From Leptolyngbyaceae cyanobacterium (lineage in GTDB: Bacteria > Cyanobacteriota > Cyanobacteriia > Phormidesmidales > Phormidesmidaceae), in the NCBI GenBank assembly GCA_050331235.1, contig JBHJHA010000036.1, forward strand, positions 49,621-113,620: 64,000 nucleotides of DNA, given 5' to 3'. The notes under the pieces were generated by a model. That model was not told where the DNA came from. It did no database searches and saw nothing but the letters and a program-made list of their open reading frames with translations. Each line of letters opens with the position of its first letter. Within the stretch, counting starts at the first letter, position 1. The position numbers were made by a program, and so were the translations under genes. This document shows positions 2,790 to 41,100 of this stretch, piece by piece.

Positions 2790-3248
2790 TTACACCTTCA
2801 ACAGTACTTGGTCGCCTTCAATTTTGGCCTCATAGGTTTCAAGCGGATCGGTTGCGGGACCGGACGCAACTGAGCCATCTGGGTTGAAGCTGGAGCCGTG
2901 GCAGGGACAGGTAAATGCGCTTGCTTCCCAGTCGACACTGCAGCCCTGATGCGTGCATAAAGAATTGACAGCAATCAAAGCATCGGCGTTGTTGGGGTCG
3001 CGGGTGACAACAAATTGGGTTCCACGAAAGTCTTTATCAGAGAGGGTCCCCGACGCATCGAGTTCGGATACCGAGCCGATAGCGACAAAGCCATCTTCGC
3101 GGGGGGCCGAATCTGCGGCGGCGGTATCATCGGTAGCTTCAGTATCGCTGGTTGAGGTCGGGTCTGACTGACAGGCGGCGATCGCGACCGGCAAAGAAGT
3201 TGCCAGCACCCCCACGCCCATCCAGTTGACAAAGTCACGTCGATTCAT
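2790..3248 (-). CDS. Rieske [2Fe-2S] protein, Tat-exported lipoprotein (PetC-like paralogue)
   Basis: MNRRDF twin-arginine motif, lipobox-like IAAC, and Rieske boxes CTHQGC and CPCHGS. Confidence 0.9.
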
Positions 3249-3281: not shown

Positions 3282-4976
3282 TTACAAAGTATCGGCCGAT
3301 GTCAATATTTGGGCGCGTTTCCAACCGCCCCAGCGGCGGAGGGCAGTGACACCGACCAATAGCAAGTCGGCACTGACGACCCCGGCAATTAACAGCTCCG
3401 AGCCGCCGGTGCCAAAGCCGTAACTATGTAGACCTGTGCCCAGTACAAAGTTGACGCCATACCAAGCCATCAGCACAGCATTGAATGACACAATGCTAGC
3501 GACATGGATGCCGAAGTCACCGATCCAGCCGACTAAACGCCCATGCAGAGGGGCAAGGTAGCAAAGCAAGGCTATGAGCGCCCAGGTTTCCTTTGGATCC
3601 CAACCCCAAAAGCGACCCCAAGAAAAATGAGCCCAAATCCCCCCGAGGATAATGCCAGCGGTGAGTAATAGCACCCCGACTTGCAAAACGCGGTAGTTGA
3701 GCTGGGATAGAACTTTGAGGCGCTGGCTAGCCTGGGGGGTAAACAGATAATTGAATAAAGCTACATGGCCGACTCCCAGTGCCAAAGCGAAACTCGCATA
3801 GCTGAGGGTGATGGTGGGAACGTGGATGCTGAGCCAAAAGTTATCTCGCAGTACAGGCACTAAGGGCGCAATGCTCGGATCGAGTACGGCGGGCAAACTG
3901 TCAGCTAACACCAAACAAACCACGGAGAGGGGGGCGGCGGCCAATAGGTAAAACCGCTTGCGAGAAAAGACCTCCAGCAACAGGGCGATCGCCGTAATAC
4001 CAAAACCACACCACACCACTGATTCGTACATGTTGGTGACCGGTGGGCGATCGGCAATCTGCATCCGCAGGAAAAAGCCGTAGCTTTGGACTGCAATCCC
4101 CGCTGTAAATAATCCAATGGCTGACCAGTAAATGGGCCAGCGCTGCATCCACTGACTGGTCAACAGCACCACAAAGGCGATCGCATAGAGCTGCCAAGCT
4201 TTAGCAAACGGATGGAAATGGTTGAAATGGACTTCGCGCGCCATGATGCCATCAGTGGGATAAACTCCAGGACTAAGCTGCTGAAGTCCTGACTTAAGAT
4301 CGGTGGTAAAGGCGCTAATCATGGGCACATGGGTCAAACCGCCTTGCAACAGTGCCTGCTGCATCGTGGTAAAGGTGGCGAGGAGAGGCGCCACCGACTC
4401 GGGACTGTAGAGCTGGGTAGCTCCCTCCAAGCCGACCCACTTACCTTTGCGATCACTGGGGTGGGGCACAATTGGTAAGCCACGATCGCTGACTGACTGA
4501 TACAGCAGATTGAGCCGGTCTTCAACAGTCAAAGCTTCTCGTTCATTGCGACTGAGATCGAGCTCATTCAGTTCCTTTTGATGGGCGCTGCTGACAATGG
4601 TCCCGAGTTCTCGATTTGCCATCAATTCCTGAAAGCTGAAATGTTTACGCTCGAGGGACAGTCCAGCCACCTCCTTTAAGGGCCGATAGTTTACCAGCAC
4701 AAAAGGTTCCTCATTCCAGTTGCGAGTGTTGAACCACATCGCGAGATAAGTGCTGAGCGCTCTTTCGCGGGTGCCATCGGTGTGTTTATAAGTGGTTGAA
4801 CCGTTGATTTTGGCGACGGTTTCCTGGGCCACCGTATCCAAGGGCTTCTTCCGTCCGTCTAGCTGCACTGCGAGCGATCGCAGCGACGCTAATCCATCCG
4901 GTTGCCACTGACTGACGGGCAACACCAGTAGCAAGCAACCAAGAATTAAACCGATGAAAAACGTAATCAGTTTCAT
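3282..4976 (-). CDS. ccsA: Cytochrome c biogenesis protein CcsA (System II haem lyase), long form with an N-terminal extracytoplasmic domain
   Basis: WWD domain WAHFSWGRFWGWDPKETWALI, plus PVTNMYES, WLSIHV and GLHSY; ATG at 4976 chosen as the likely start. Confidence 0.9.
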   Translation of the reverse strand: MKLITFFIGLILGCLLLVLPVSQWQPDGLASLRSLAVQLDGRKKPLDTVAQETVAKINGSTTYKHTDGTRERALSTYLAMWFNTRNWNEEPFVLVNYRPLKEVAGLSLERKHFSFQELMANRELGTIVSSAHQKELNELDLSRNEREALTVEDRLNLLYQSVSDRGLPIVPHPSDRKGKWVGLEGATQLYSPESVAPLLATFTTMQQALLQGGLTHVPMISAFTTDLKSGLQQLSPGVYPTDGIMAREVHFNHFHPFAKAWQLYAIAFVVLLTSQWMQRWPIYWSAIGLFTAGIAVQSYGFFLRMQIADRPPVTNMYESVVWCGFGITAIALLLEVFSRKRFYLLAAAPLSVVCLVLADSLPAVLDPSIAPLVPVLRDNFWLSIHVPTITLSYASFALALGVGHVALFNYLFTPQASQRLKVLSQLNYRVLQVGVLLLTAGIILGGIWAHFSWGRFWGWDPKETWALIALLCYLAPLHGRLVGWIGDFGIHVASIVSFNAVLMAWYGVNFVLGTGLHSYGFGTGGSELLIAGVVSADLLLVGVTALRRWGGWKRAQILTSADTL

Positions 4977-5066
4977 AGGGCCAGCGATATTCAACAAAGA
5001 TCAGGGCTATAAATTTGCGTGGGCGATCGCCCGGTGAACGGTTGTGGTGACAGTGCGATGCATTCG

Positions 5067-6878
5067 TTACTTGCCAAACACCGCTAAAATTGGAATTGTT
5101 CCGCCAGTTTCCTCGGGCACCTCTTCCGCGACCGATGGGGCCTCGTCGGGGGAGGGCGATCGCCACCATTGGCGCCACCGCTTGAGCAAACTAGGTCCGT
5201 AAAACATGGTGGCGATACCCAGGACGACCAGCAACGAGCCGGTCCAAGTCAGGGCCGTGACCCACCAAGGTTCGCGCTTGAGCTGCAGAGTTGACTGCTG
5301 CAGGTCCCCCGGATTCCAAGACGCTTGGGCGAGCTTCCAACCCCGAAACCAAGTGGGGTGATTCATCCATACTGAGCGCTGTACTGCCGTATCCGTTTGC
5401 GGGTCAAACAGGGTCAAATCACTGGTCCACATGGCGACCGACTCGCTACCCTCGTTGCGCTCCACGATGAAATCGTTTAGCTTGACGTAAAACGGTAGCT
5501 CGAGCAGCTTGGGGCTAAACGCGGCAAAATATTGCCCAGCACTGGTTTCGAGGACTTTTGGTTCTCCCCAGGGGAGCCAAAAGTCCTCGCCCTCGGCGGT
5601 CGCTATGTGCAGCGCCGGAGTCCCTTCATTCGGGCGGGCATTGGCTGCAACCGGCATCACCGGTACAATCTGTCGCTGCACCTGTGCGTGGTCAAGTTGT
5701 TCGACCAGCGTAATTTGAAAATCGGCCCAGCCCGGAATGACGGCTTCCCCGGGCTGGAATTTGCCCGTGCTGAAACCCTGGGCAGACGCGGCGGCGAAAT
5801 ACAGGTCCTGCCCAGGCGTTGTCACGATGCGAAAATAATCCGTAGGAGTCGCTACCGGCGGCTTATAGGCGATCGCTATCTCAATCCCGTCGTCCGAGCG
5901 TACCGGAGGCAGCCCTGGGTTGCCAAAGACAAACCATCGTTCCTGTTGACTTTCCTGGGAGACTAACAACTGCACCGCTGGATTGCGAAACTGCTCGGAG
6001 GCTGATGTGGGCTGCCCATCACCATTCAGGCGAAAATCGGGCCAGACAGCGGTGACTTCGACGTTGGTCCCCTCCTCCAACGTGAGGGACTGTCCCTGGA
6101 TTTGAGCGATATCAAAGTGGCGATCGCGCTGCTTAGCCGCAACGATGGCTATCTCGCCGAGGGGATGCTCAACCTCGGCGGGTGGACTCAACCACCGCTG
6201 CTGCTCAGCAGCATCGCCGACGGACACAATTTCAAAATGGGCAGGACCGATGTCTAACTGGCTATATCCTGCGGGAGCGACGGCTAGCCAGCGGTCCAAC
6301 GTTTGACCCATGCGATCGCTGTGCAGCTGAATCTTGACGGCTGGATTAGGAACCGTGCCCGTATTGTCAAACGCGACGGTCTTGATGGCGTTGTCGCTAT
6401 AGCCCAGCAGCGAGAGCCCCGCAAATTGCTGAGGATATACTGACCCATCAGAACGCACAAAAATATCACTTTGCTGGCGGGTGCGATCGGGTGCAACGAC
6501 TTCCAGCAGGTCACCCTGAATGCGAATTTGGGACCCTGGACCAGCATCCGTGCGTACGAGCAGCATCCCTTCCGTACTGAGATGAATTACAGCGGCTGAG
6601 CCAGCGATGATGATGACTAGGCCCCAGTGGGTTAAGGCAAAGCCCACCTTGCGGGGACCTTTCCAAGGCCAGCGGTTCAGGGTCGAGAGACCCAAATTAA
6701 CTGCTAACAAAAACATCAGAGCGCCAAACCAAGCGCTCTTATAAATCTCTCGTTGAACGGTGAGTGGACCCACATTTGATTCATAAAAAGTAGCACCAAT
6801 CAAGATGACAGAAATCACTGTCAAGAGTGGTACTGCTAATCGAATAGAGCCTAAATATTGGATGAGTCGAGACTTCAT
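5067..6878 (-). CDS. Cytochrome c biogenesis protein of the ResB/CcsB family
   Basis: N-terminal TM helices with LGSIRLAV..L, IY.S.WF and THWG (conserved His), a large soluble domain, MNHP and a C-terminal TM; directly upstream of ccsA. Confidence 0.85.
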   Translation of the reverse strand: MKSRLIQYLGSIRLAVPLLTVISVILIGATFYESNVGPLTVQREIYKSAWFGALMFLLAVNLGLSTLNRWPWKGPRKVGFALTHWGLVIIIAGSAAVIHLSTEGMLLVRTDAGPGSQIRIQGDLLEVVAPDRTRQQSDIFVRSDGSVYPQQFAGLSLLGYSDNAIKTVAFDNTGTVPNPAVKIQLHSDRMGQTLDRWLAVAPAGYSQLDIGPAHFEIVSVGDAAEQQRWLSPPAEVEHPLGEIAIVAAKQRDRHFDIAQIQGQSLTLEEGTNVEVTAVWPDFRLNGDGQPTSASEQFRNPAVQLLVSQESQQERWFVFGNPGLPPVRSDDGIEIAIAYKPPVATPTDYFRIVTTPGQDLYFAAASAQGFSTGKFQPGEAVIPGWADFQITLVEQLDHAQVQRQIVPVMPVAANARPNEGTPALHIATAEGEDFWLPWGEPKVLETSAGQYFAAFSPKLLELPFYVKLNDFIVERNEGSESVAMWTSDLTLFDPQTDTAVQRSVWMNHPTWFRGWKLAQASWNPGDLQQSTLQLKREPWWVTALTWTGSLLVVLGIATMFYGPSLLKRWRQWWRSPSPDEAPSVAEEVPEETGGTIPILAVFGK

Positions 6879-6936
6879 ATTTAGAAGAGATACCGCAGAA
6901 ACTCGTATTCCAAATCATTCATTCGCTTTCCAATAG

Positions 6937-6960
6937 TTTTTGTAAAAAGCATCACAAAAA
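6937..6960 (-). promoter_or_regulatory. NtcA/CRP-family box upstream of the resB-ccsA-Rieske arm
   Basis: Minus strand TTTTTGTGATGCTTTTTACAAAAA = GTG-N8-TAC within TGT-N10-ACA; a weak -10 (AATGAT, 6919-6914) lies 22 nt downstream. Confidence 0.55.
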
Positions 6961-7132
6961 TAAATTAATTGGTGCGGAAAGCGATCGTGACCCATGCGAA
7001 AACCGCATCGATCATCCTAAAAATATATCTAAGACGCCTTTAAAATTCCTCCTTCAGAAGGATTTTTGAGTCGTCTTTAGAGATCGAAAGCTAACTCGAT
7101 AACCGGATATGTACTGAATAAACGTATCAAAA

Positions 7133-7147
7133 ATGCATTTATTGCAT
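7133..7147. promoter_or_regulatory. LysR-type inverted repeat (TGCA-N5-TGCA, NtcB-like)
   Basis: ATGCA-TTTAT-TGCAT palindrome with a T-N11-A core, centred about 52 bp upstream of the plus-strand NtcA-like box. Confidence 0.4.
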
Positions 7148-7184
7148 CGAATCAATGCGTTAAGCGTATGGTTTTTATGGGAAT

Positions 7185-7227
7185 TGTGCTTGGTTTTACA
7201 AAACAAGAAATATACCTTCTCTATTGT
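7185..7227 (+). promoter_or_regulatory. Class II NtcA-type promoter for the globin/multihaem operon
   Basis: TGTG-CTTGGTTT-TACA (GTG-N8-TAC, 7186-7199), exactly 22 nt, then TATTGT (TAN3T, 7222-7227). Confidence 0.65.
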
Positions 7228-7508
7228 CAAGTCCATGGTTCTGTTTTTGGTTTGCGAAAGAAAATCACGCTTTCGCTCTGAATATTTGAAGTCAGAGTCC
7301 GCGTCTGGCTTTCGAAATTTAGACGGTTTTGCAGTTGAATTTTTTGTTGATTGAGTATTGCCGTTCAGAGATTGCTTCAGGGTTGATTGGTTTTTCGGCT
7401 TCTGGCGCTGGAATTTGATTGTTCTGTTGGGTGCGATTTTTGGCGGTCTAGCTACTCAATGACTGTGTTTTTCTTTGGGATATAGAGTTTCTTGGGAGAC
7501 AGGGATTA

Positions 7509-8530
7509 ATGGTTTCAAGTACGAATGACGCGTCTGAGGAGAAAGGATTACAGGTTAGCTATTGGAGCGTAGCTTTGAGAAGGTGACTCCCCGAGCCGAT
7601 GATTTTGTAGCGAGCTTTTACAGCAATCTATTCGCTGATTATCCAGACGCGAAGCCGCTGTTTGCCCACACCAATATGGCTAAGCAGCAGAAAATGCTGC
7701 TGGAATCTCTTGTCTTTGTTGTCGAGAATTTGCGCCAGCCCGAGGCTTTGTCGGGGGCTCTTCAGGGCCTCGGTGCCCGGCATATGAAATATGGGGCGCT
7801 GCCTGAGCATTATCCGTTGGTGGGCAACTCGCTGCTCAAAACGTTTAGCCAGTACTTGGGAAATGATTGGACTCCAGAAACTCAGCAGGCTTGGGCTGAG
7901 GCTTATGGAGCGATTACGATGCTCATGTTGGAGGGGGCCGATTACGCCCCAGAGCAAGTCCAGTTGGAGCCGCCGGCTGAGGTGGATGAAGCCACAGGAC
8001 TCAAGATTCAGCTGCTGGAAGAGAGCTTTGGTAAGGTGGCTCCCCAGGCTGATGCGTTTGTCGGCAGTTTTTACGACAACTTATTCACGGACTACCCAGC
8101 CGCTAAGCCTTTATTTACCCATACCAATATGGGCAAGCAGAAAAAGATGCTGCTGGAGTCTTTGGTGTTTGTTATCGAAAACCTGCGCCAGCCCGGGAAA
8201 CTGACCGAGGCTTTGAAGGGGCTCGGCACTCGCCATGTGCAGTACGGCGCTTTGCCCGATCACTATCCGCTGGTGGGCAACTCGTTGCTCAAGACCTTTG
8301 AGCAGTACCTCGGTAGTGACTGGACTGATGAAGTGAAGCAGGCCTGGGTGGATGCCTATGGTCTTATCACAACGGTCATGTTGGAAGGCGCTGATTATGA
8401 TCGAGCCTCTGTCCAGCTACCCTCTACAGCTACGCTCGAAGCGCCAGAAAGCAACATCAATATGGGGGCAGCAGCCGGTATTGCTGGCGGCGGCCTGATT
8501 GCCTTGATTGCGCTGATCTTGCTGGTCTAA
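7509..8530 (+). CDS. Tandem two-domain globin (M-family, flavohaemoglobin-like globin domains) with a C-terminal membrane anchor; apparent 1-nt frameshift near 7556
   Basis: Two highly similar globin repeats (FY..LF.DYP.AKPLF, Q at E7, LG.RH..YG..P.HYP.VG, W..AY) and a hydrophobic tail. The ATG at 7509 reads MVSS...KGLQV but is out of frame with the main ORF (7562-8530). Confidence 0.85.
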
Positions 8531-8557
8531 GTCGAGGATGCACACGGAGCAAGATTG

Positions 8558-9202
8558 ATGGCTTTGAGAAGCCGAATACTGAGGGGGCGATCGCTCCTGA
8601 CTCTGAGAACGGCAATCGTCCTCGTTTGCATTATCCTGGTGGGCTGGTTTGGTGCGGCGTTTGCCCTGGACAACAAGCAGGCGTTCTTGCCAGGGGAGAC
8701 CTCAGTCGGTCACTACCTGTTTGAAACGTCCTGCAGTTCTTGTCACGAAGGGTTTAAGCCCGTGAGTAACGACACCTGCATGCGCTGTCATGAGGCGGAG
8801 ATGGCTGAGGATAAGCACGGTGCGGCTAAGTTCCGGGATCCTCGGTGGGCGGGGGAGCTGCAAAAGATTGAAGCGCTGACTTGCACCACTTGCCATAACG
8901 AGCATGTCCACATGTTTGGACGGGGGGTCCATTTGCAGCCCGATCTATGTATGAACTGCCACCAAGGCATCATTGAGGGCGATCTCAAGAGTCATGACGG
9001 CTTTGCCGCCGATGGGTGTTGGACGGCGGGCTGCCACAACTACCACGATCACCGCTCAATTTCGACTGGGTTTTTGATTGAAAATGTTGACCAACCGCCC
9101 ATGCTGCCGGTGCAGCTGTTACCTGATCGAATCGTTTTAACCCAGGTGTATAGGGCACCGAGTCCTGATCTAAGTGACGCCTTTTTGCAAGGGGGGGCAT
9201 GA
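8558..9202 (+). CDS. Membrane-anchored multihaem cytochrome c (4 CXXCH plus 1 CX4CH)
   Basis: CSSCH, CMRCH, CTTCH, CMNCH and CWTAGCH motifs; N-terminal hydrophobic segment. Confidence 0.9.
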   Translation: MALRSRILRGRSLLTLRTAIVLVCIILVGWFGAAFALDNKQAFLPGETSVGHYLFETSCSSCHEGFKPVSNDTCMRCHEAEMAEDKHGAAKFRDPRWAGELQKIEALTCTTCHNEHVHMFGRGVHLQPDLCMNCHQGIIEGDLKSHDGFAADGCWTAGCHNYHDHRSISTGFLIENVDQPPMLPVQLLPDRIVLTQVYRAPSPDLSDAFLQGGA

Positions 9203-10011
9203 TGTTGCAGCGACTCTGGGGTCGAGCGATCGCCCTGATGGTATTGCCGCTATTGCTATTGGGCAATGGGGGCCTGCCAGCCCAGGCTAACCCTGTTGAT
9301 CGCGCTCAAGTTGAGACCGTTACTCAGCTTTGGCAAACCAGTGCCCATGCCCTGAATGAAATTAACTGCTCCAGTTGTCATGAATCATCCGCGACTCAGG
9401 AATTTGTGGCCCGCCCGGGCGTCGAAAGTTGTCAATCCTGTCATCAGCAAGACGTCGATACCTTCTTACTCGGTAAGCACGGCATTCGGCTGCTGGAGGG
9501 TGATACGCCCCTCACGCCCGCGATGGCTCGTCTGCCGATGCAGCCCGACGTGATGAACCAGCCCATGACCTGCAATAGCTGTCACGACGTTCACTCGGTC
9601 AATACCATGCAGGCGGCGGTCGATTCTTGCTTGGGGTGCCACAGCGACTCGCACTCGTTGAACTACGGTGATTCCCGCCATGCGGACCTGTTTGCCGCTG
9701 ATCGCGACTTGCCGCGCCCCTCGGCGACCTCGGTGAGCTGTGCTACCTGCCACCTGCCGCGTCATCAGACTGGGACGGGCGATAGCGCAGTTACGCTGAT
9801 CAATCACAACAATACCTACACGCTGCTCCCCCGCGATCGCATGGTCAAGGACGTGTGCATGAATTGCCACGGTATGGAGTACAGCTACAACAGCATTTTT
9901 GACGATGACCTCGTGGAGGCAAATTTTAACGCCCCACCGACCCTTGCCCTAAAAACTTTTGACCTTGTCCGGGCGTTTGAAGAGCGTCGCACTGATCAGG
10001 GTGAGAGTTAG
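9199..10011 (+). CDS. Exported hexahaem cytochrome c
   Basis: Signal peptide ending AQA; CSSCH, CQSCH, CNSCH, CLGCH, CATCH and CMNCH; ATGA overlap with the upstream gene. Confidence 0.9.
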   Translation: MMLQRLWGRAIALMVLPLLLLGNGGLPAQANPVDRAQVETVTQLWQTSAHALNEINCSSCHESSATQEFVARPGVESCQSCHQQDVDTFLLGKHGIRLLEGDTPLTPAMARLPMQPDVMNQPMTCNSCHDVHSVNTMQAAVDSCLGCHSDSHSLNYGDSRHADLFAADRDLPRPSATSVSCATCHLPRHQTGTGDSAVTLINHNNTYTLLPRDRMVKDVCMNCHGMEYSYNSIFDDDLVEANFNAPPTLALKTFDLVRAFEERRTDQGES

Positions 10012-10135: not shown

Positions 10136-10789
10136 ATGACACTTGTAGGAAGATGTATGAATACCCTGCGAACTCGCACGGTCGCTTTCATCGCGATCAT
10201 CATGGCGGTTGCCGTTACTGCGATCTCTTGTAGCAGCAGCGGCACAACTGCAACCGCCGCCCCCGGCATCTCGCCCGAGTTGGTGGCTGATTACATTCAC
10301 ACGGTTATGGAGGCTGACCGCACTGCCTATACCAAGCACGTGGTCAACCGCGCCACCATGCTAGAAGGCAAAGAAAAGGCCGACGGCGTAGTTCCGGTTG
10401 AAGCAACTGAGGCTTGGCAGCAAGGTGAGGGCATTCCCCTGCCCGCCCAAATGTTCCGTCTGGGCTCTGAGATTGCCAACGAAAAAGGTTATTTCACTTA
10501 CAACCTCATCTCACCTTGGTATATCAATGACAGCCACGCCCCTAAAGGCGAGTTTGAGGAAACCGCGGTCGAAACCATGATCGAAACTGGTGAACCCGTC
10601 AAAGACTATCAAGAAATTGGCGGGCAGCAGTACTTCTCGGCGATGTACCCCGACAAGGCGGTGGCTGAGGCTTGTGTATCTTGCCACAACACCCATCCCA
10701 TTCACCTGGAGCGCTATCCCGATAAGCAGTTCGAGATGGACGAGGTGATGGGCGGCATCGTCATCAACATTCCCCTAGAGGGAGCCTAA
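10136..10789 (+). CDS. DUF3365/Tll0287-like monohaem c lipoprotein
   Basis: Lipobox-like TAISC; ADRTAYT..VVNR, PLPAQMFR, YNLISPW.IN and a single CVSCH followed by MGGIVI.IP. Confidence 0.8.
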   Translation: MTLVGRCMNTLRTRTVAFIAIIMAVAVTAISCSSSGTTATAAPGISPELVADYIHTVMEADRTAYTKHVVNRATMLEGKEKADGVVPVEATEAWQQGEGIPLPAQMFRLGSEIANEKGYFTYNLISPWYINDSHAPKGEFEETAVETMIETGEPVKDYQEIGGQQYFSAMYPDKAVAEACVSCHNTHPIHLERYPDKQFEMDEVMGGIVINIPLEGA

Positions 10790-11027: not shown

Positions 11028-11756
11028 ATGAGTAGATCGCCTCGACCTCAGCATGTAGATCCCCCGTCTAATCAGCACTCCATCGAGTCACATGAGCCGC
11101 GGGTGGCCGATGCGGTGGCGGCGATCGCCCCCCAAAGGCAAAGGGCCTTTAAGCCGCGGGGTATCAAACCCAGCTTTAAGGTCCTGATCGGCCTGACATT
11201 GCTGACAGCGCTGCTGCTGACCCCATTTGTCGTGAGTGATCTATATCTCGATGCGCTTAGGGCGCGATCGTTTGATTTGCATCAGTTTATCCGGGGGGAA
11301 CTGTACAAGCAGTCGACCGGCTACGGAGCTTTGGTCTTGGTGTTAGTTGAGATGCTACTGACGGTGCGCAAGCGCGGTGGTGGCTGGCTGGCTCGGATCA
11401 AACTGCCAGGCTCAATGTTGATATGGCGGAGTACCCACATTTTTCTGGGCGTAGGGTTGCTGGGATTAGTGCTGGTGCATACTTTGGGCGCTAACGGCCT
11501 GAACTTTAACGCCATCTTTCTCTGGGTATTTTTTGCGACGACTTTGACGGCGTTGGTCGGCGTGGTCGCTGAAACTGGCATTTTGGAATCCACCCAGAGC
11601 TACTTTGGCAAACTGCCGGGGTCAAACGTGGCTTTAACGAAAGGGCCACTCATTCGCGGGTTGAGAGCCATTTGGCTGACTAGCCATATCTTTTTTGTGG
11701 CTGTCTTTGGTGTGATGCTGATTTTTCACATTGCGCTGGCTTACTACTATCAGTGA
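11028..11756 (+). CDS. Integral membrane protein, predicted di-haem b (ferric-reductase-like TM domain)
   Basis: About 5 hydrophobic helices; two helices each carry His pairs 14 residues apart (HIFLGVGLLGLVLVH and HIFFVAVFGVMLIFH). Confidence 0.7.
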   Translation: MSRSPRPQHVDPPSNQHSIESHEPRVADAVAAIAPQRQRAFKPRGIKPSFKVLIGLTLLTALLLTPFVVSDLYLDALRARSFDLHQFIRGELYKQSTGYGALVLVLVEMLLTVRKRGGGWLARIKLPGSMLIWRSTHIFLGVGLLGLVLVHTLGANGLNFNAIFLWVFFATTLTALVGVVAETGILESTQSYFGKLPGSNVALTKGPLIRGLRAIWLTSHIFFVAVFGVMLIFHIALAYYYQ

Positions 11757-11844
11757 AGACGCTGACTTATTTAGCACGCTGGTTGGGTAAACGGGTGGAG
11801 TCTTGGGTGTCGCATTTTGTGTTGGTGTATTACGGATAGAGGCT

Positions 11845-12375
11845 ATGACGGATCAAATTCGTTTGTTGGAAACCAGTTTTGCCCAGGTCCGACCTAAGGC
11901 GATGGCCTTCTCAGATTGTTTTCACCGCCATTTATTTCAAAACCATCCAGACATCGAGCCCATGTTCAGCGACGTGAGCCTCGAATTGCAAGAAAAAAAG
12001 CTGATCGCTTCCCTTGCGCTCATTGTTGAAAATTTGCATAACCCGGCGGCTTTAGCCCATGCACTTCAAGCCTTGGGGGCCTATCACGTGACCAAGGGAA
12101 CCCTGGCAGAGCATTACCCCTATGTGGGGCAGGCCCTGATGCAGGCCTTTGCCGAATTTTTGGGGGATGAATGGACGCCTGCTGTCGCTGAGGCGTGGCA
12201 GGCGGCCTATCGCACGATTTGCGATTTGATGCTGGAGGGGGCGGAGCATCCCCAAGCGTATCTAGAGGGTGAGCTGACCTTTTATGAATGGCTAGATCTA
12301 TATGGCGAGTCTAGTCCGACGTTACACAAGCTTGTGGAGTCGACCACCCACTTTAAATATGGCGCTAAAGGGTAG
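11845..12375 (+). CDS. Single-domain globin with a C-terminal extension
   Basis: LLETSF...LF..HP....MF, Q at E7, LGAYH, EHYP.VG and W..AY; ATG at 11845. Confidence 0.85.
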   Translation: MTDQIRLLETSFAQVRPKAMAFSDCFHRHLFQNHPDIEPMFSDVSLELQEKKLIASLALIVENLHNPAALAHALQALGAYHVTKGTLAEHYPYVGQALMQAFAEFLGDEWTPAVAEAWQAAYRTICDLMLEGAEHPQAYLEGELTFYEWLDLYGESSPTLHKLVESTTHFKYGAKG

Positions 12376-12407: not shown

Positions 12408-12908
12408 TTGATATTGATGGAGTCGGTAGTGATGACGGTGAATCGAGGTTCTGACAACCCAGCGATGAATCGGGGCAGCCGGTGGGCGATCGTGATAATT
12501 GCCACCTTTGCGATCGCCGCATTTTGGCTAACTCGTCCGGTAGCGGATGCCCATTTTTCTCCGGTATCTGGCCTAATGTCGTTGAAAGCCAGTGCTCAAC
12601 AGGCGATGCCCTATCAGGTCGCAATGCACAATGGCAAGCCGACGCTGATTGAGTTTTACGCTGACTGGTGTACCACCTGCCAGGGGATGGCCCCTACCTT
12701 GGCGTCTATCCACGAGCAATTGGGAGGGTCTGTCAACTGGGTAATGCTGGATATTGATGATCCCCAGTGGCGCGACCAGATACAGCAGTTTCACGTTACC
12801 GGTGTGCCCCATCTGGTTCTGCAAACGGGGCAGGGGGCGATCGCTGACAGTTTTGTGGGTAAGGTACCCGGGCCCATTCTCTTACGGAGTATTGAGCAAA
12901 TGTTCTAG
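12408..12908 (+). CDS. Membrane-anchored thioredoxin-like protein (TxlA/HCF164/ResA-like)
   Basis: N-terminal TM segment, EFYADWCTTC and GVPH; the true start may be slightly downstream. Confidence 0.85.
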   Translation: MILMESVVMTVNRGSDNPAMNRGSRWAIVIIATFAIAAFWLTRPVADAHFSPVSGLMSLKASAQQAMPYQVAMHNGKPTLIEFYADWCTTCQGMAPTLASIHEQLGGSVNWVMLDIDDPQWRDQIQQFHVTGVPHLVLQTGQGAIADSFVGKVPGPILLRSIEQMF

Positions 12909-13414: not shown

Positions 13415-14296
13415 ATGTCAATCCGATTTCAACTTTGGGGTTGGGGCTGGGCCCTCGCGGGCACGTTGCTAATCACCGCACCCGCCTGTTCTGGCGATGA
13501 GGCGATCGCCCCGCAGTCAACGCCGATGGTCCTCTCTAGTACTGAGGATGACGCCTTTCAAGCCTTACAGTCAGCCGATGTAGTTTACTTAGGAGAACGG
13601 CACGATAGCCCCCTTGACCACGCAGCTCAACTAGAGATCATTAAGGCCCTTTATGCCGCCGATCCAGAGATTGCGATCGCCCTAGAGATGTTTCAGCGGC
13701 CCTTTCAACCGGTGATTGATCGGTATCTAGCGGGAGATATTTCCGAGGCAGCCCTAGTCAAGCAGACTGAATACCAAGAACGTTGGGGCTTTCCCTGGGA
13801 GTTTTACGCGCCGGTCGTGCGGTTTGCCCAGGCCCAAGACCTGCCTGTGCTCGCACTGAATGCCCCCGCGGAAATCACCCGACAAATTGCCCGCGAAGGG
13901 CTTACTAGCTTATCCGGCAATGACTTTCGCTATATTCCACCGGTTGAGGCGATCGACACCACTAACCCAGACTACCGCGACTTTGTCACCGCTGCGTTTG
14001 GTGCTCACGGGGCCCACGGAGATTTTAATTTCGACAACTTTTTTGCGGCGCAGGTGACCTGGGACGAAACGATGGCCATGACCATTGCTGAGTTTAAGGC
14101 CGATAATCCCGATACTCAGGTCGTCGTATTGGCGGGTAATGGACACGTGATCTACGGCTGGGGCATTCCTGACCGGGTACAGCGCCGACTGGGCGAGGAG
14201 CTGATACAGCAAATTGTGGTGCTGAATCCGAGTCCTGAGGTGGAGCAGGCAAAGGGGGCGATCGCCGATCTCTTTTGGTACAGCGAAGGGCCATAG
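13415..14296 (+). CDS. ChaN-family (Tiki/ChaN, haem/iron-related) lipoprotein
   Basis: Lipobox APAC; VVYLGERHD, ALEMFQRPFQ, WDETMA and AGNGHV.YG.GIP motifs. Confidence 0.85.
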   Translation: MSIRFQLWGWGWALAGTLLITAPACSGDEAIAPQSTPMVLSSTEDDAFQALQSADVVYLGERHDSPLDHAAQLEIIKALYAADPEIAIALEMFQRPFQPVIDRYLAGDISEAALVKQTEYQERWGFPWEFYAPVVRFAQAQDLPVLALNAPAEITRQIAREGLTSLSGNDFRYIPPVEAIDTTNPDYRDFVTAAFGAHGAHGDFNFDNFFAAQVTWDETMAMTIAEFKADNPDTQVVVLAGNGHVIYGWGIPDRVQRRLGEELIQQIVVLNPSPEVEQAKGAIADLFWYSEGP

Positions 14297-38143: not shown

Positions 38144-41100
38144 ATGGTTCGCCCCTTTTTTACGAATCTCCGTCTGCTGGTCTTGACCATCATTTTGATT
38201 TTGGGGTGGGGCCTCTCCTCCTATCAGTCACTGCCGCGCCAGGAAGATCCCCAACTGGTTTCCCGAGTGGCTGTGATTACCACTGCATTTCCGGGAGCCA
38301 ATGCTGAACGGGTAGAGGCACTCGTAACCACTGTTTTGGAAGAGGAGCTAGCGGAGATTGAGGAAATACACGTCATTGCGTCTGATTCCCGAGTGGGGTT
38401 CTCCTCCGTCACCGTAGAGCTGGATGAATCGATTGATCAGGTGCAGCCGGTTTGGTCCAAGGTGCGGGATGAAATGGACGATGCGGCCCGATTGTTTCCC
38501 GCTGGCGCGGCCGAATCCGAGATTTCTGAAGTATTGGTGAAAGCCTATACCTATGTGGCGTCGGTGACATGGCGTTTACCCGGTGAGCCTAACTATGCCA
38601 TCCTGCGCCGTTATGCAGACGAGCTCGGCGTTGTGCTGCGCGGCGTTGAGGGCACTGAGGAGGTCGACTTTTTCGGTAACCCCGATGAAGAAATCTTGGT
38701 GGAAATCAGCGCCCCTGACCTGGTAGGAGTGGGACTCTCGCCCCAAGGACTTGCCGACCAGGTGCAACTCAGCGATGTCAAGGACAGTGCCGGTCAGGTG
38801 CGGACCCCTGATGAGACGTTCGCGATTGAGGTAGACAGCGAGCTAGCCGCCTTGGAACAGATTCGTCAGCTTCCCGTACAGACAGACAACGGCCAGTTTA
38901 CCCGACTGGGGGATATCGCTCAGGTCACCCGCGGGGTGAGGGAACCGCTGAGTAGTGTAGCGATGATCGATGGCCAACCGGCGGTGGTGGTGGGGGTGAT
39001 GATGCAGTCGGGTTTGCGCATTGACCAGTGGGCGGCCACTGCTCGCGCGGCGGTGGCAGATTTTCGCGAAGGTTTACCAGCTGGGGTCACCCTGGACATT
39101 ATTTTTGACCAGAGTCGTTACGTTGAAAATCGCATCAGTTCACTGATGGTGAATTTGGTACTGAGCGCGTTACTTGTCTTTAGCGTGACCCTCGTCGCGA
39201 TGGGCTGGCGGGCAGCCTTGGTGGTGGGGACGGCGTTACCCTTTACCATTTTTGCGGTCTTTGGCTGGATGACGGTTTTTGGCATTCCGATTCATCAGAT
39301 GTCGGTCACAGGACTGATCATTGCCTTGGGATTGCTGATTGACAATGCGATCGTGGTGGTCGATGAAATTCGCGCTGAACTCGACCACGGTATTGAACCG
39401 CTACGGGCCGCAACTAAGGCGGTGCGCTATCTGCGAGTACCACTCCTAGCCTCTACTGCAACAACGGTGCTCACTTTTTTGCCGATTTACTTGCTGCCGG
39501 GGTCGGCGGGGGAGTTTGTGGGCTCGATCGCGCTGGGCGTAATTTTGGCACTGCTCTCTTCCCTGGCGATTTCCTTAACGATGATTGCTGCCTTGGCCGC
39601 GCGGGCCTTGTCGCCGTCTGCAACCGATCCCCAGAGTAGAACAGGTCTGTGGGGACGACTGGCTCGATTTTTGCATCGGCCAGGTACTTGGTGGAGCGAA
39701 GGCCTATCGCTGCCGCGATTGACCCGCCTATATCAGTGGTCACTGCGGCGAGCCACAACTCGTCCTCTACTGGCGATCGCCTTCACACTAGCCATTTCCC
39801 TCGTGGGGTTCATCTCTGCTAGCACCTTGGAAAATCAGTTTTTTCCCCTGCTTAATCGTGACCAGTTTCACATTGAAATGGAGTTTGCTGCCCAAACTTC
39901 CATTGAGGAAACCCGGCAGCAAGTATTGAGAGCCCGGGAGGTGATTTTGCAGCATGAGAACGTCGAAGCGGTGTATTGGTTTGTGGGGGAAAGCGCCCCC
40001 CGGTTTTATTACAACCTCCAGGGCGATCGCCGCAATCAGCCTTACTACGCCCAGGCGATGGTGCAGCTCAAATCTGAGACTGGCCTGGAACCGTTAGTCC
40101 GTACCGTGCAGCAAGAGCTGGCGCAGCAGTTTCCAGCGGCTCGCGTCATGGCCCAAAAGTTTCAGCAGGGGCCACCTTTTGATGCGCCGGTAGAGATGCG
40201 CATTTATGGCCCTAACCTGGATGAACTGCGTCGCCTGGGCATAGAGGTGCGTGCCATCATGGCCGAAGTTCCCGATGTCATCGGTGTCCGGGATGACTTG
40301 ACCGAAGGGCAGCCCCAGCTCGCCTTGACCCTAGACGAAGAACAAGTCCGACAAGCCGGACTGACGAACACCGATGTGGCTCAGCAACTCCAGGCTTATT
40401 CCGAAGGGGTGACCGGCGGGGCCATTTTAGAGTCTACAGAAAATTTACCGGTCCGAATCCGGCTGTCCAAGGCTGATCGCGCTAGTTTACAAGCGCTGAT
40501 GTCCCTCGATTTGCGCCCTGAGCAAGCTCAAGATCGCGACTTTCGACCGGTCTCTGCACTGGGTGAGTTTGCCCTCCAGCCTCAGCTTGCAGGCATTGCT
40601 CGGCGCCATGAACAGCGGGTTAACACAGTTCAGGCTTTTATTACGGCAGGGGTGTTGCCTAATACGGTGCTGACAGCTTTACGAGAACGGTTGGCCGCCG
40701 AAAATTTTGAACTCCCGCCGGGATATCGCTATGAGTTTGGCGGTGAATACGAGGACCAAAATACGGCAGTGGGTAACCTGCTGCTGTTTGTCCCCCTCTT
40801 GGTATTGGGGATGGTGACGGCATTGGTGCTATCGCTGGGGTCGTTTCGGCAGGCGGGTATTATTGCGGTGGTGGCCACCGGGTCTATTGGCATGGCGATG
40901 TTGTCGCTGAAGATCTTTGACTCACTCCTGGGCTTTACGGCCATTATTGGCTCGATGGGGTTAGTCGGGGTCGCCATCAATGACTCCATCGTAGTGTTGA
41001 CGGCTTTAAATGATGATCCGGAGGCTAGCCAAGGCATGGCCAAAGGGGTACAGCGGGTAACGCTGCAGGCAACTCGTCACGTATTGACCACTACGGTGAC

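Follow-up and report, generated by a model that had tools for sequence, protein, structure and literature searches.

A cyanobacterial globin and multihaem cytochrome cluster with twin nirA-type promoters, likely switched on together with nitrate use and probably for NO removal

Gene content of the cluster

The window analysed here is a 64,000-nt stretch of a contig from a Leptolyngbyaceae cyanobacterium. Two gene arms diverge within it from an AT-rich intergenic region (6879-7508), one encoding haem-attachment proteins and a Rieske protein, the other globins, multihaem cytochromes and further membrane-anchored proteins (Table 1). For this cluster the closest named relatives are Halomicronema/Leptolyngbya-type records, and a search for a plasmid homolog found none. 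The cluster is followed by a ChaN-like haem-binding gene (13415-14296), a synteny that is kept in close relatives.

Table 1. Genes and predicted promoter elements of the cluster (positions within the window)
Feature	Position	Strand	Remark
Rieske [2Fe-2S] protein	2790..3248	-	N-terminal twin-arginine motif
Accessory CcsA/ResC-like haem-attachment protein	3282..4997	-	second family member on another contig
ResB-like cytochrome c maturation protein	5067..6878	-	Pfam PF05140
resB-arm weak -10, AATGAT	6914..6919	-	22 nt past NtcA box; predicted start ~6907
resB-arm NtcA box, GTG-N8-TAC	6942..6955	-	16 bp after own NtcB box
resB-arm double NtcB box	6972..7008	-	distal palindrome 7008-6994 perfect, proximal 6986-6972 degenerate
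globin-arm double NtcB box	7133..7169	+	palindromes 7133-7147 and 7155-7169, 7 bp apart
globin-arm NtcA box, GTG-N8-TAC	7186..7199	+	16 bp after NtcB box
globin-arm -10, TATTGT	7222..7227	+	22 bp past NtcA box; predicted start ~7234
Predicted 5' leader, 275 nt	7234..7508	+	from predicted start to ATG 7509
Tandem Hmp-like globin, C-terminal membrane tail	7509..8530	+	likely start ATG 7509
Membrane-anchored five-haem cytochrome c	8555..9202	+	one CX4CH motif
Six-haem cytochrome c	9199..10011	+	fused to five-haem protein as 11-haem protein in other bacteria
Tll0287-like single-haem protein	10136..10789	+	PF11845
Four-helix membrane protein, predicted di-haem cytochrome b	11028..11756	+	invariant His 137/151, 220/234
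Second, single Hmp-like globin	11803..12375	+	
Membrane-anchored thioredoxin-like protein	12408..12908	+	

The best PDB matches of the globin are Hmp-like globins, and its residues Y20, F34, Q42, H74 and Y84 are invariant (26/26); we take the conserved residues to represent the B10 Tyr, the distal E7 Gln and the proximal F8 His. Neither a reductase domain nor a flavoprotein is encoded in the cyanobacterial cluster. The tandem globin gene has one base fewer at 7556/7557 than six of six orthologs, and the frame from ATG 7509 stops after 25 codons while a long frame opens at TTG 7562, the break being either an assembly error or a real frameshift. Another Hmp-like globin, with a fused C-terminal domain carrying a CxxC motif (326-aa frame), is found on a different contig (C34, ~39073-39387). 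The Tll0287-like protein gave no informative PDB match.

Both arms carry a nirA-type promoter layout

The strongest inverted repeat of the intergenic region consists of two 20-nt sites (6938-6957 and 7184-7203) that are 80% complementary. These are the two similar, opposed sites from which the sequence-only reading started, and we recovered them at the positions it had given, together with the 22-nt spacing to the hexamers AATGAT and TATTGT and with ATGCA-N5-TGCAT on the plus strand (7133-7147). That reading had seen a single NtcB-like motif; the motif is present, but the description was incomplete, as three of four NtcB palindromes had been overlooked (7155-7169 on plus, 7008-6994 and 6986-6972 on minus). 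Once these are included, each arm displays a complete nirA-type layout, namely a double NtcB box, 16 bp, an NtcA box, 22 bp and a -10 element. The double boxes match ATGC-N7-GCAT-N7-ATGC-N7-GCAT at 15 of 16 bases on the globin arm and at 12 of 16 on the resB arm. The resB-arm hexamer retains the -11 A and -7 T and lacks the -12 T of TAN3T. A 21-bp inverted repeat (76%) also lies between the two NtcB boxes, at 7031-7077, and is absent from the aligned orthologs.

TGCA-N5-TGCA is the NtcB motif of the Synechococcus PCC 7942 nirA promoter. A close known counterpart of the layout is the nirA promoter of Anabaena sp. PCC 7120 (PDB 8h3v). According to the preprint on its NtcA-NtcB complex, the NtcB box ATGC-N7-GCAT-N7-ATGC-N7-GCAT lies at -100 to -64 and is followed after 15 bp by the NtcA box at -48 to -35, and co-activation is lost when the spacer is altered by 5 bp (bioRxiv 10.1101/2022.10.10.511513). 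The window arms share with it the double box, the NtcA box, a spacer of about 15 bp and a -10 after 22 bp. Unlike the promoter described there, they form two back-to-back copies, identified from sequence, with 16-bp spacers, GTG for GTA and one weak -10, and their targets are globins, cytochromes and haem-attachment genes instead of nitrate transport and reduction. GTG-N8-TAC is itself the top NtcA ChIP site reported in Anabaena (PMC3898017), and the class II promoters that depend on NtcA only in that report (glnA, ntcB, urtA) share the NtcA box 22 bp before TAN3T but have no NtcB box. The predicted starts (7234 and 6907), as given by the sequence-only reading, follow from this published promoter geometry. 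A generic sigma-70 scan returned no promoter, as expected for activator-dependent promoters.

The composite signature stands out in the genome

Single elements by themselves prove little: the genome holds 2036 matches to GTR-N8-TAC and 244 to TGCA-N5-TGCA on both strands, and 21 of 2000 shuffled versions of the intergenic sequence produced an NtcA-like score equal to that of these sites. The composite behaves differently, as no shuffle out of 2000 reached 21.6 bits (maximum 20.9), the observed scores being 43.4 and 21.6. The matrix behind these scores was trained on nirA promoters with the genome under study excluded; 43 nirA hits were available in cluster-bearing genomes, 30 promoters were fetched and 26 of them used, the other four being left out for their poor fit to the consensus. 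When both strands of the 4.8-Mb genome were scanned, the top three hits were nirA (49.6 bits), the globin promoter (43.4) and the resB promoter (21.6). At the nirA promoter of the genome itself the layout of the window arms recurs with a spacer of 15 bp, and 16-bp spacers occur in 6 of the 26 training promoters.

The fourth hit (20.6 bits) has no matching NtcA box. It is a perfect double NtcB box at ~30002-30038 of contig C31, upstream of a nirB-like HEAT-repeat gene; homologs of this gene flank nirA in 14 of 31 loci, and it is followed by a phosphoketolase-like ORF. Among the 33 class II NtcA-like sites of the genome, glnA included, the NtcB score is positive only at nirA and at the globin promoter and falls below zero at the other 31; the resB site is outside this list because of its -10. 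Control regions for the matrix scan (0/55 and 4/53) were mostly coding DNA and hence make a weak control, for which the shuffles and the class II list are better substitutes.

Regulators and conservation in relatives

Both putative regulators are encoded in the genome (NtcA, E 6e-123; NtcB, E 5e-120, against PDB chains). Among 44 cluster-bearing genomes, ntcB was found in 41 and nirA in 43, and the three without an ntcB match are draft assemblies. In two cases the distance from ntcB to the cluster is no more than about 10 kb, namely in a Prochloron record (18689-20738 of L049, with a cnaT-like gene) and in Acaryochloris marina (4417952-4418878).

Of 150 genomes from the order, 68 were found to have the cluster, as were 2 of 300 in a sample of the phylum. 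Among 55 orthologous loci, 40 offered 500 nt or more upstream of the globin gene and 31 did so upstream of resB; scores of at least 20 bits were reached by 31 of the 40 globin arms and 12 of the 31 resB arms, in genomes that are all related and hence do not form independent samples. A held-out set of 20 further regions, from which one duplicate was removed, gave the same threshold in 15 of 19 globin arms and 3 of 17 resB arms, with 7 of the 17 reaching at least 11 bits with a positive NtcA score. When sites were anchored on the NtcA box only, the best NtcB match fell at a spacer of 15-17 bp in 35 of 41 globin and 20 of 32 resB regions, the window included. Most of the orthologous globin sites read GTA-N8-TAC or differ from it by a single base (third base A in 30 of 41 aligned sites), and at the 22-bp register the T, A and T of TAN3T are found in 34, 32 and 26 of the 41. 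Across 32 resB regions the -12 T is rare (5/32), the -11 A occurs in 25/32 and the -7 T in 18/32, anchors having been partly picked on these bases.

An unguided alignment of 11 intergenic regions gave invariant columns that fall on the boxes of both arms. In these regions the two distal palindromes stand apart by anything from about 20 to several hundred bases, which means that each arm owns a separate NtcB box. Conservation upstream of orthologous clusters, which the sequence-only reading had named as a check, thus holds for the globin arm; for the resB arm it holds among the 11 related regions and a minority of orthologs, and it is not universal. As judged from these comparisons, the resB-arm promoter is a real but lineage-restricted feature. 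Four loci of one lineage (L006, L007, L008 and L010) also have a third NtcA and NtcB composite inside the operon, about 310-340 nt upstream of the membrane-protein gene.

Transcript data from Acaryochloris marina and the 5' leader

A. marina MBIC11017, a strain that is in culture and sequenced, carries the globin-arm promoter before its orthologous operon (AM1_4406), with a motif-predicted start at 4432788. Published RNA-seq data list a plus-strand transcript at 4432802-4432996, over AM1_4405, among the top 50 by abundance (RPKM 10120; PMC5295598). Its boundary lies 14 nt downstream of our prediction and is a Rockhopper boundary as opposed to a mapped start site; this suggests that the orthologous promoter is active near the predicted site. 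The proposal of class II NtcA plus NtcB control as at nirA is supported by sequence, conservation, genome-wide ranking and the transcript start of an ortholog.

The same dataset, obtained at an unchanged nitrogen source, gives RPKM values in control, microoxic and hyperoxic cultures of 109/42/215 for the globin AM1_4406 and 416/70/1567 for AM1_4409 (PMC5295598), which by position is the Tll0287-like gene. The operon as a whole goes down 2.6- to 5.9-fold in microoxia and up in hyperoxia, whereas neither of two genes with the GO term nitrate assimilation changes with oxygen in these data. Regulation like a nitrate/nitrite assimilation operon, as the sequence-only reading put it, thus keeps its nirA-type signature, but "exactly like nirA" is too simple, as the operon tracks oxygen and the nitrate-assimilation genes do not.

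Most of the A. marina RNA stops about 200 nt past the start, at a strong 20-bp hairpin (RPKM 10120 versus 109 for the globin). AM1_4405, annotated as a hypothetical protein of 38 aa, sits inside the 5' leader of the globin operon; it is possibly a leader RNA or an attenuation device, and its sequence is not conserved. No conserved leader sequence, small ORF or structure was found among 35 leaders compared, leader BLAST matches occur almost exclusively between close kin, the z-score of the window leader is -1.9, and Rfam gave no match near threshold for the leader.

Multihaem proteins and fused homologs in other bacteria

All 120 longer homologs among the matches listed are fusions of the five- and six-haem cytochromes, and the named carriers among these matches belong to Gammaproteobacteria, Burkholderiales, Planctomycetes and Verrucomicrobia/Kiritimatiellota. 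The 33 fusions that we aligned have 11 haem motifs, 11 invariant His outside these motifs and no CXXCK, which suggests that all 11 c-haems may be bis-His ligated and form a wire. In the membrane protein four His are invariant, forming two pairs with a spacing of 14 residues, and it is predicted to bind two b haems; the cyanobacterial form has no flavoprotein domain. An HAO-like enzyme was at first suspected and is not supported: similarity of the six-haem protein to HAO/NrfA-like enzymes (6h5l, 6m0p, 4qo5) is weak in both sequence and fold (E 1.4e-4; Z 3.8 on a model of pLDDT 58), and Foldseek with this model returned no match at E <= 0.001. In contrast to these enzymes, the window proteins show a single conserved distal His for each haem, lack CXXCK and are much shorter, and by this comparison they look more like a wire than a catalyst.

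The surroundings of the fused form were surveyed in the best 80 of 431 metagenome loci, presumably non-cyanobacterial, to which all counts in this paragraph refer. A NirB-like flavoprotein is encoded in 76 of the 80, and in 38 loci its membrane domain is detectably similar to the membrane protein of the window; a Tll0287-like gene accompanies the fused form in 75 of the 80, and in 59 there is a globin. Nitrate-assimilation genes (ANTAR/nasT, nasS/nrtA, nrtBCD, narK and reductases, where nasT and nasS are labels given to the ANTAR and NMT1_2 families) adjoin the fused form in 34 loci, and an ANTAR gene lies directly upstream of the module in 14. Among loci of at least 12 kb the proportion is 24 of 41, or 21 of 30 clusters when grouped at 70% identity, and 46 of the 80 have no nitrate gene within the locus DNA examined. 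Those regulated gene lists of a Methylomonas DH-1 NtrC study that we searched showed no trace of the module.

A characterised system of similar content is narK-bjgb-flp-nasC of Bradyrhizobium japonicum, in which a NasT-controlled globin and a flavoprotein detoxify NO arising from nitrate assimilation (PMC4724949). As described in that work, it likewise ties a single-domain Hmp-like globin to nitrate assimilation, through co-expression under a regulator that responds to nitrate/nitrite, with NO protection demonstrated in Bradyrhizobium, and the regulators differ: NasS-NasT there, NtcA/NtcB as predicted for the window. B. japonicum has a soluble flavoprotein and the window cluster none, whereas the window adds a double globin with a tail anchor, a membrane protein predicted to be di-haem, 11 c-haems and maturation genes of its own. 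Bjgb is reported to matter mainly under O2 limitation (PMC4724949), while the A. marina operon falls in microoxia.

Alternative explanations

Every single element of the promoters is common, and their joint occurrence in AT-rich intergenic DNA could in principle be a chance resemblance. The shuffles, the genome-wide rank and the fixed spacing in orthologs make this extremely improbable, and for the globin arm conservation refutes it. The boxes might also be read by other factors: the NtcA-like site by CRP or an NO sensor of the HcpR/DNR type, or the palindromes by a different LysR protein. At least six CRP-family and at least eight LysR-family matches are present in the genome, the A. marina operon responds to oxygen, and the minus-strand site of the window contains a TGTGA half, which had led the sequence-only reading to note a likeness to a CRP box. 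That likeness did not survive comparison, and TGTGA-N6-TCACA was rejected, as across the 11 aligned resB sites the TCACA half is found in none and the full TGTGA half in the window alone. Nor does either window site fit the cyanobacterial HcpR consensus reported in the literature (TTGAC-N4-GTCAA; PMC1274295), so an HcpR/DNR site was rejected too. As the orthologous globin sites keep close to GTA-N8-TAC and the palindromes agree in both sequence and spacing with the nirA box of this genome, we regard readers other than NtcA and NtcB as improbable. It seems rather unlikely, yet less so than these, that only the globin arm works as an NtcA/NtcB promoter, the resB elements being a weak or decaying copy and resB-ccsA-Rieske using another promoter. 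The poor resB -10, the modest counts among orthologs (12/31) and held-out genomes (3/17), and the missing promoter where resB is rearranged, e.g., in Acaryochloris, speak for this; against it, the resB composite ranks third in the whole genome, its arm has its own perfect and correctly spaced palindrome, the columns are invariant in 11 related genomes, and the -11 A and -7 T are frequent, with the reserve on anchoring given above.

On the side of function, regulation could be as we propose while the module serves chiefly to export or dissipate electrons, or to reduce nitrite or NO in the periplasm at the Tll0287-like haem. The fused homologs join a cytoplasmic NAD(P)H flavoprotein to a membrane domain beside an exported 11-haem protein, the investment is large if it merely re-reduces a cytoplasmic globin, and a globin accompanies the fused form in 59 of the best 80 of 431 loci, not in every one. 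Set against this are the single conserved distal His per haem, which leaves no obvious open site in the multihaem proteins, the faint HAO/NrfA similarity, and the rise of A. marina expression with oxygen in the published data, which suits an O2-using globin. We consider such an electron-export role on the unlikely side.

Proposed regulation and function

We therefore favour, at a probability of about 0.7, a reading in which divergent promoters of nirA architecture are co-activated by NtcA and NtcB and their products form a wire that serves NO removal by the globin. Taken by itself, NtcA/NtcB regulation is very probable for the globin arm and somewhat favoured for the resB arm, as far as the promoter sequences tell, and for NO removal as the function of the cluster the odds seem about even. 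Without ammonium, NtcA carrying 2-oxoglutarate would occupy its box, which is centred at -41.5, and bend the DNA, such that NtcB, sitting as a tetramer on the double palindrome (about -101 to -65), could reach RNA polymerase, as in the solved structure of the Anabaena nirA complex. Induction of the globin-cytochrome operon, and of the haem-attachment genes belonging to it, would then go along with nitrate assimilation. As NtcA and NtcB would co-activate both arms, the haem proteins and a dedicated maturation system would be made together. The products may form a membrane-spanning haem wire, consisting of the di-haem b protein, five plus six c-haems and the Tll0287-like haem, that would keep the tethered Hmp-type globins reduced, and these may convert NO, a by-product of nitrate or nitrite reduction, to nitrate. 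Here we infer NtcA and NtcB binding, the nitrogen response and the electron donor, and are less sure that the wire re-reduces the globins.

As a type, such promoters are already known. In the literature that we searched, which left aside the 2011 survey of the NtcB regulon (Lopatovskaya et al.), the original NtcB papers and RegPrecise, we found no earlier description of NtcA/NtcB promoters on both arms of this cluster. In the sources consulted there NtcB is an activator specific to the nitrate-assimilation pathway. For Synechococcus 7002, a co-expression study names a further 16 predicted NtcB targets (PMC5062996).

Taken together, an uncharacterised haemoglobin and multihaem cytochrome cluster is likely switched on together with nitrate use, as its promoters suggest, and this probably serves NO removal. 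More tentatively, several phyla of nitrate assimilators may share an undescribed module of haem wire and globin, wired independently to NtcA and NtcB in cyanobacteria and to NasS-NasT elsewhere; in these cyanobacteria it might be the main NtcB target beyond the nitrate-assimilation genes and might capture NO, self-made or from the environment, as nitrate for growth. The structural signature of NtcB on both arms of a haem-protein cluster offers a testable physiological condition and widens the predicted NtcB regulon, and the association of the module with clusters of the NasT type in other bacteria points to an overlooked and general component of nitrate assimilation.
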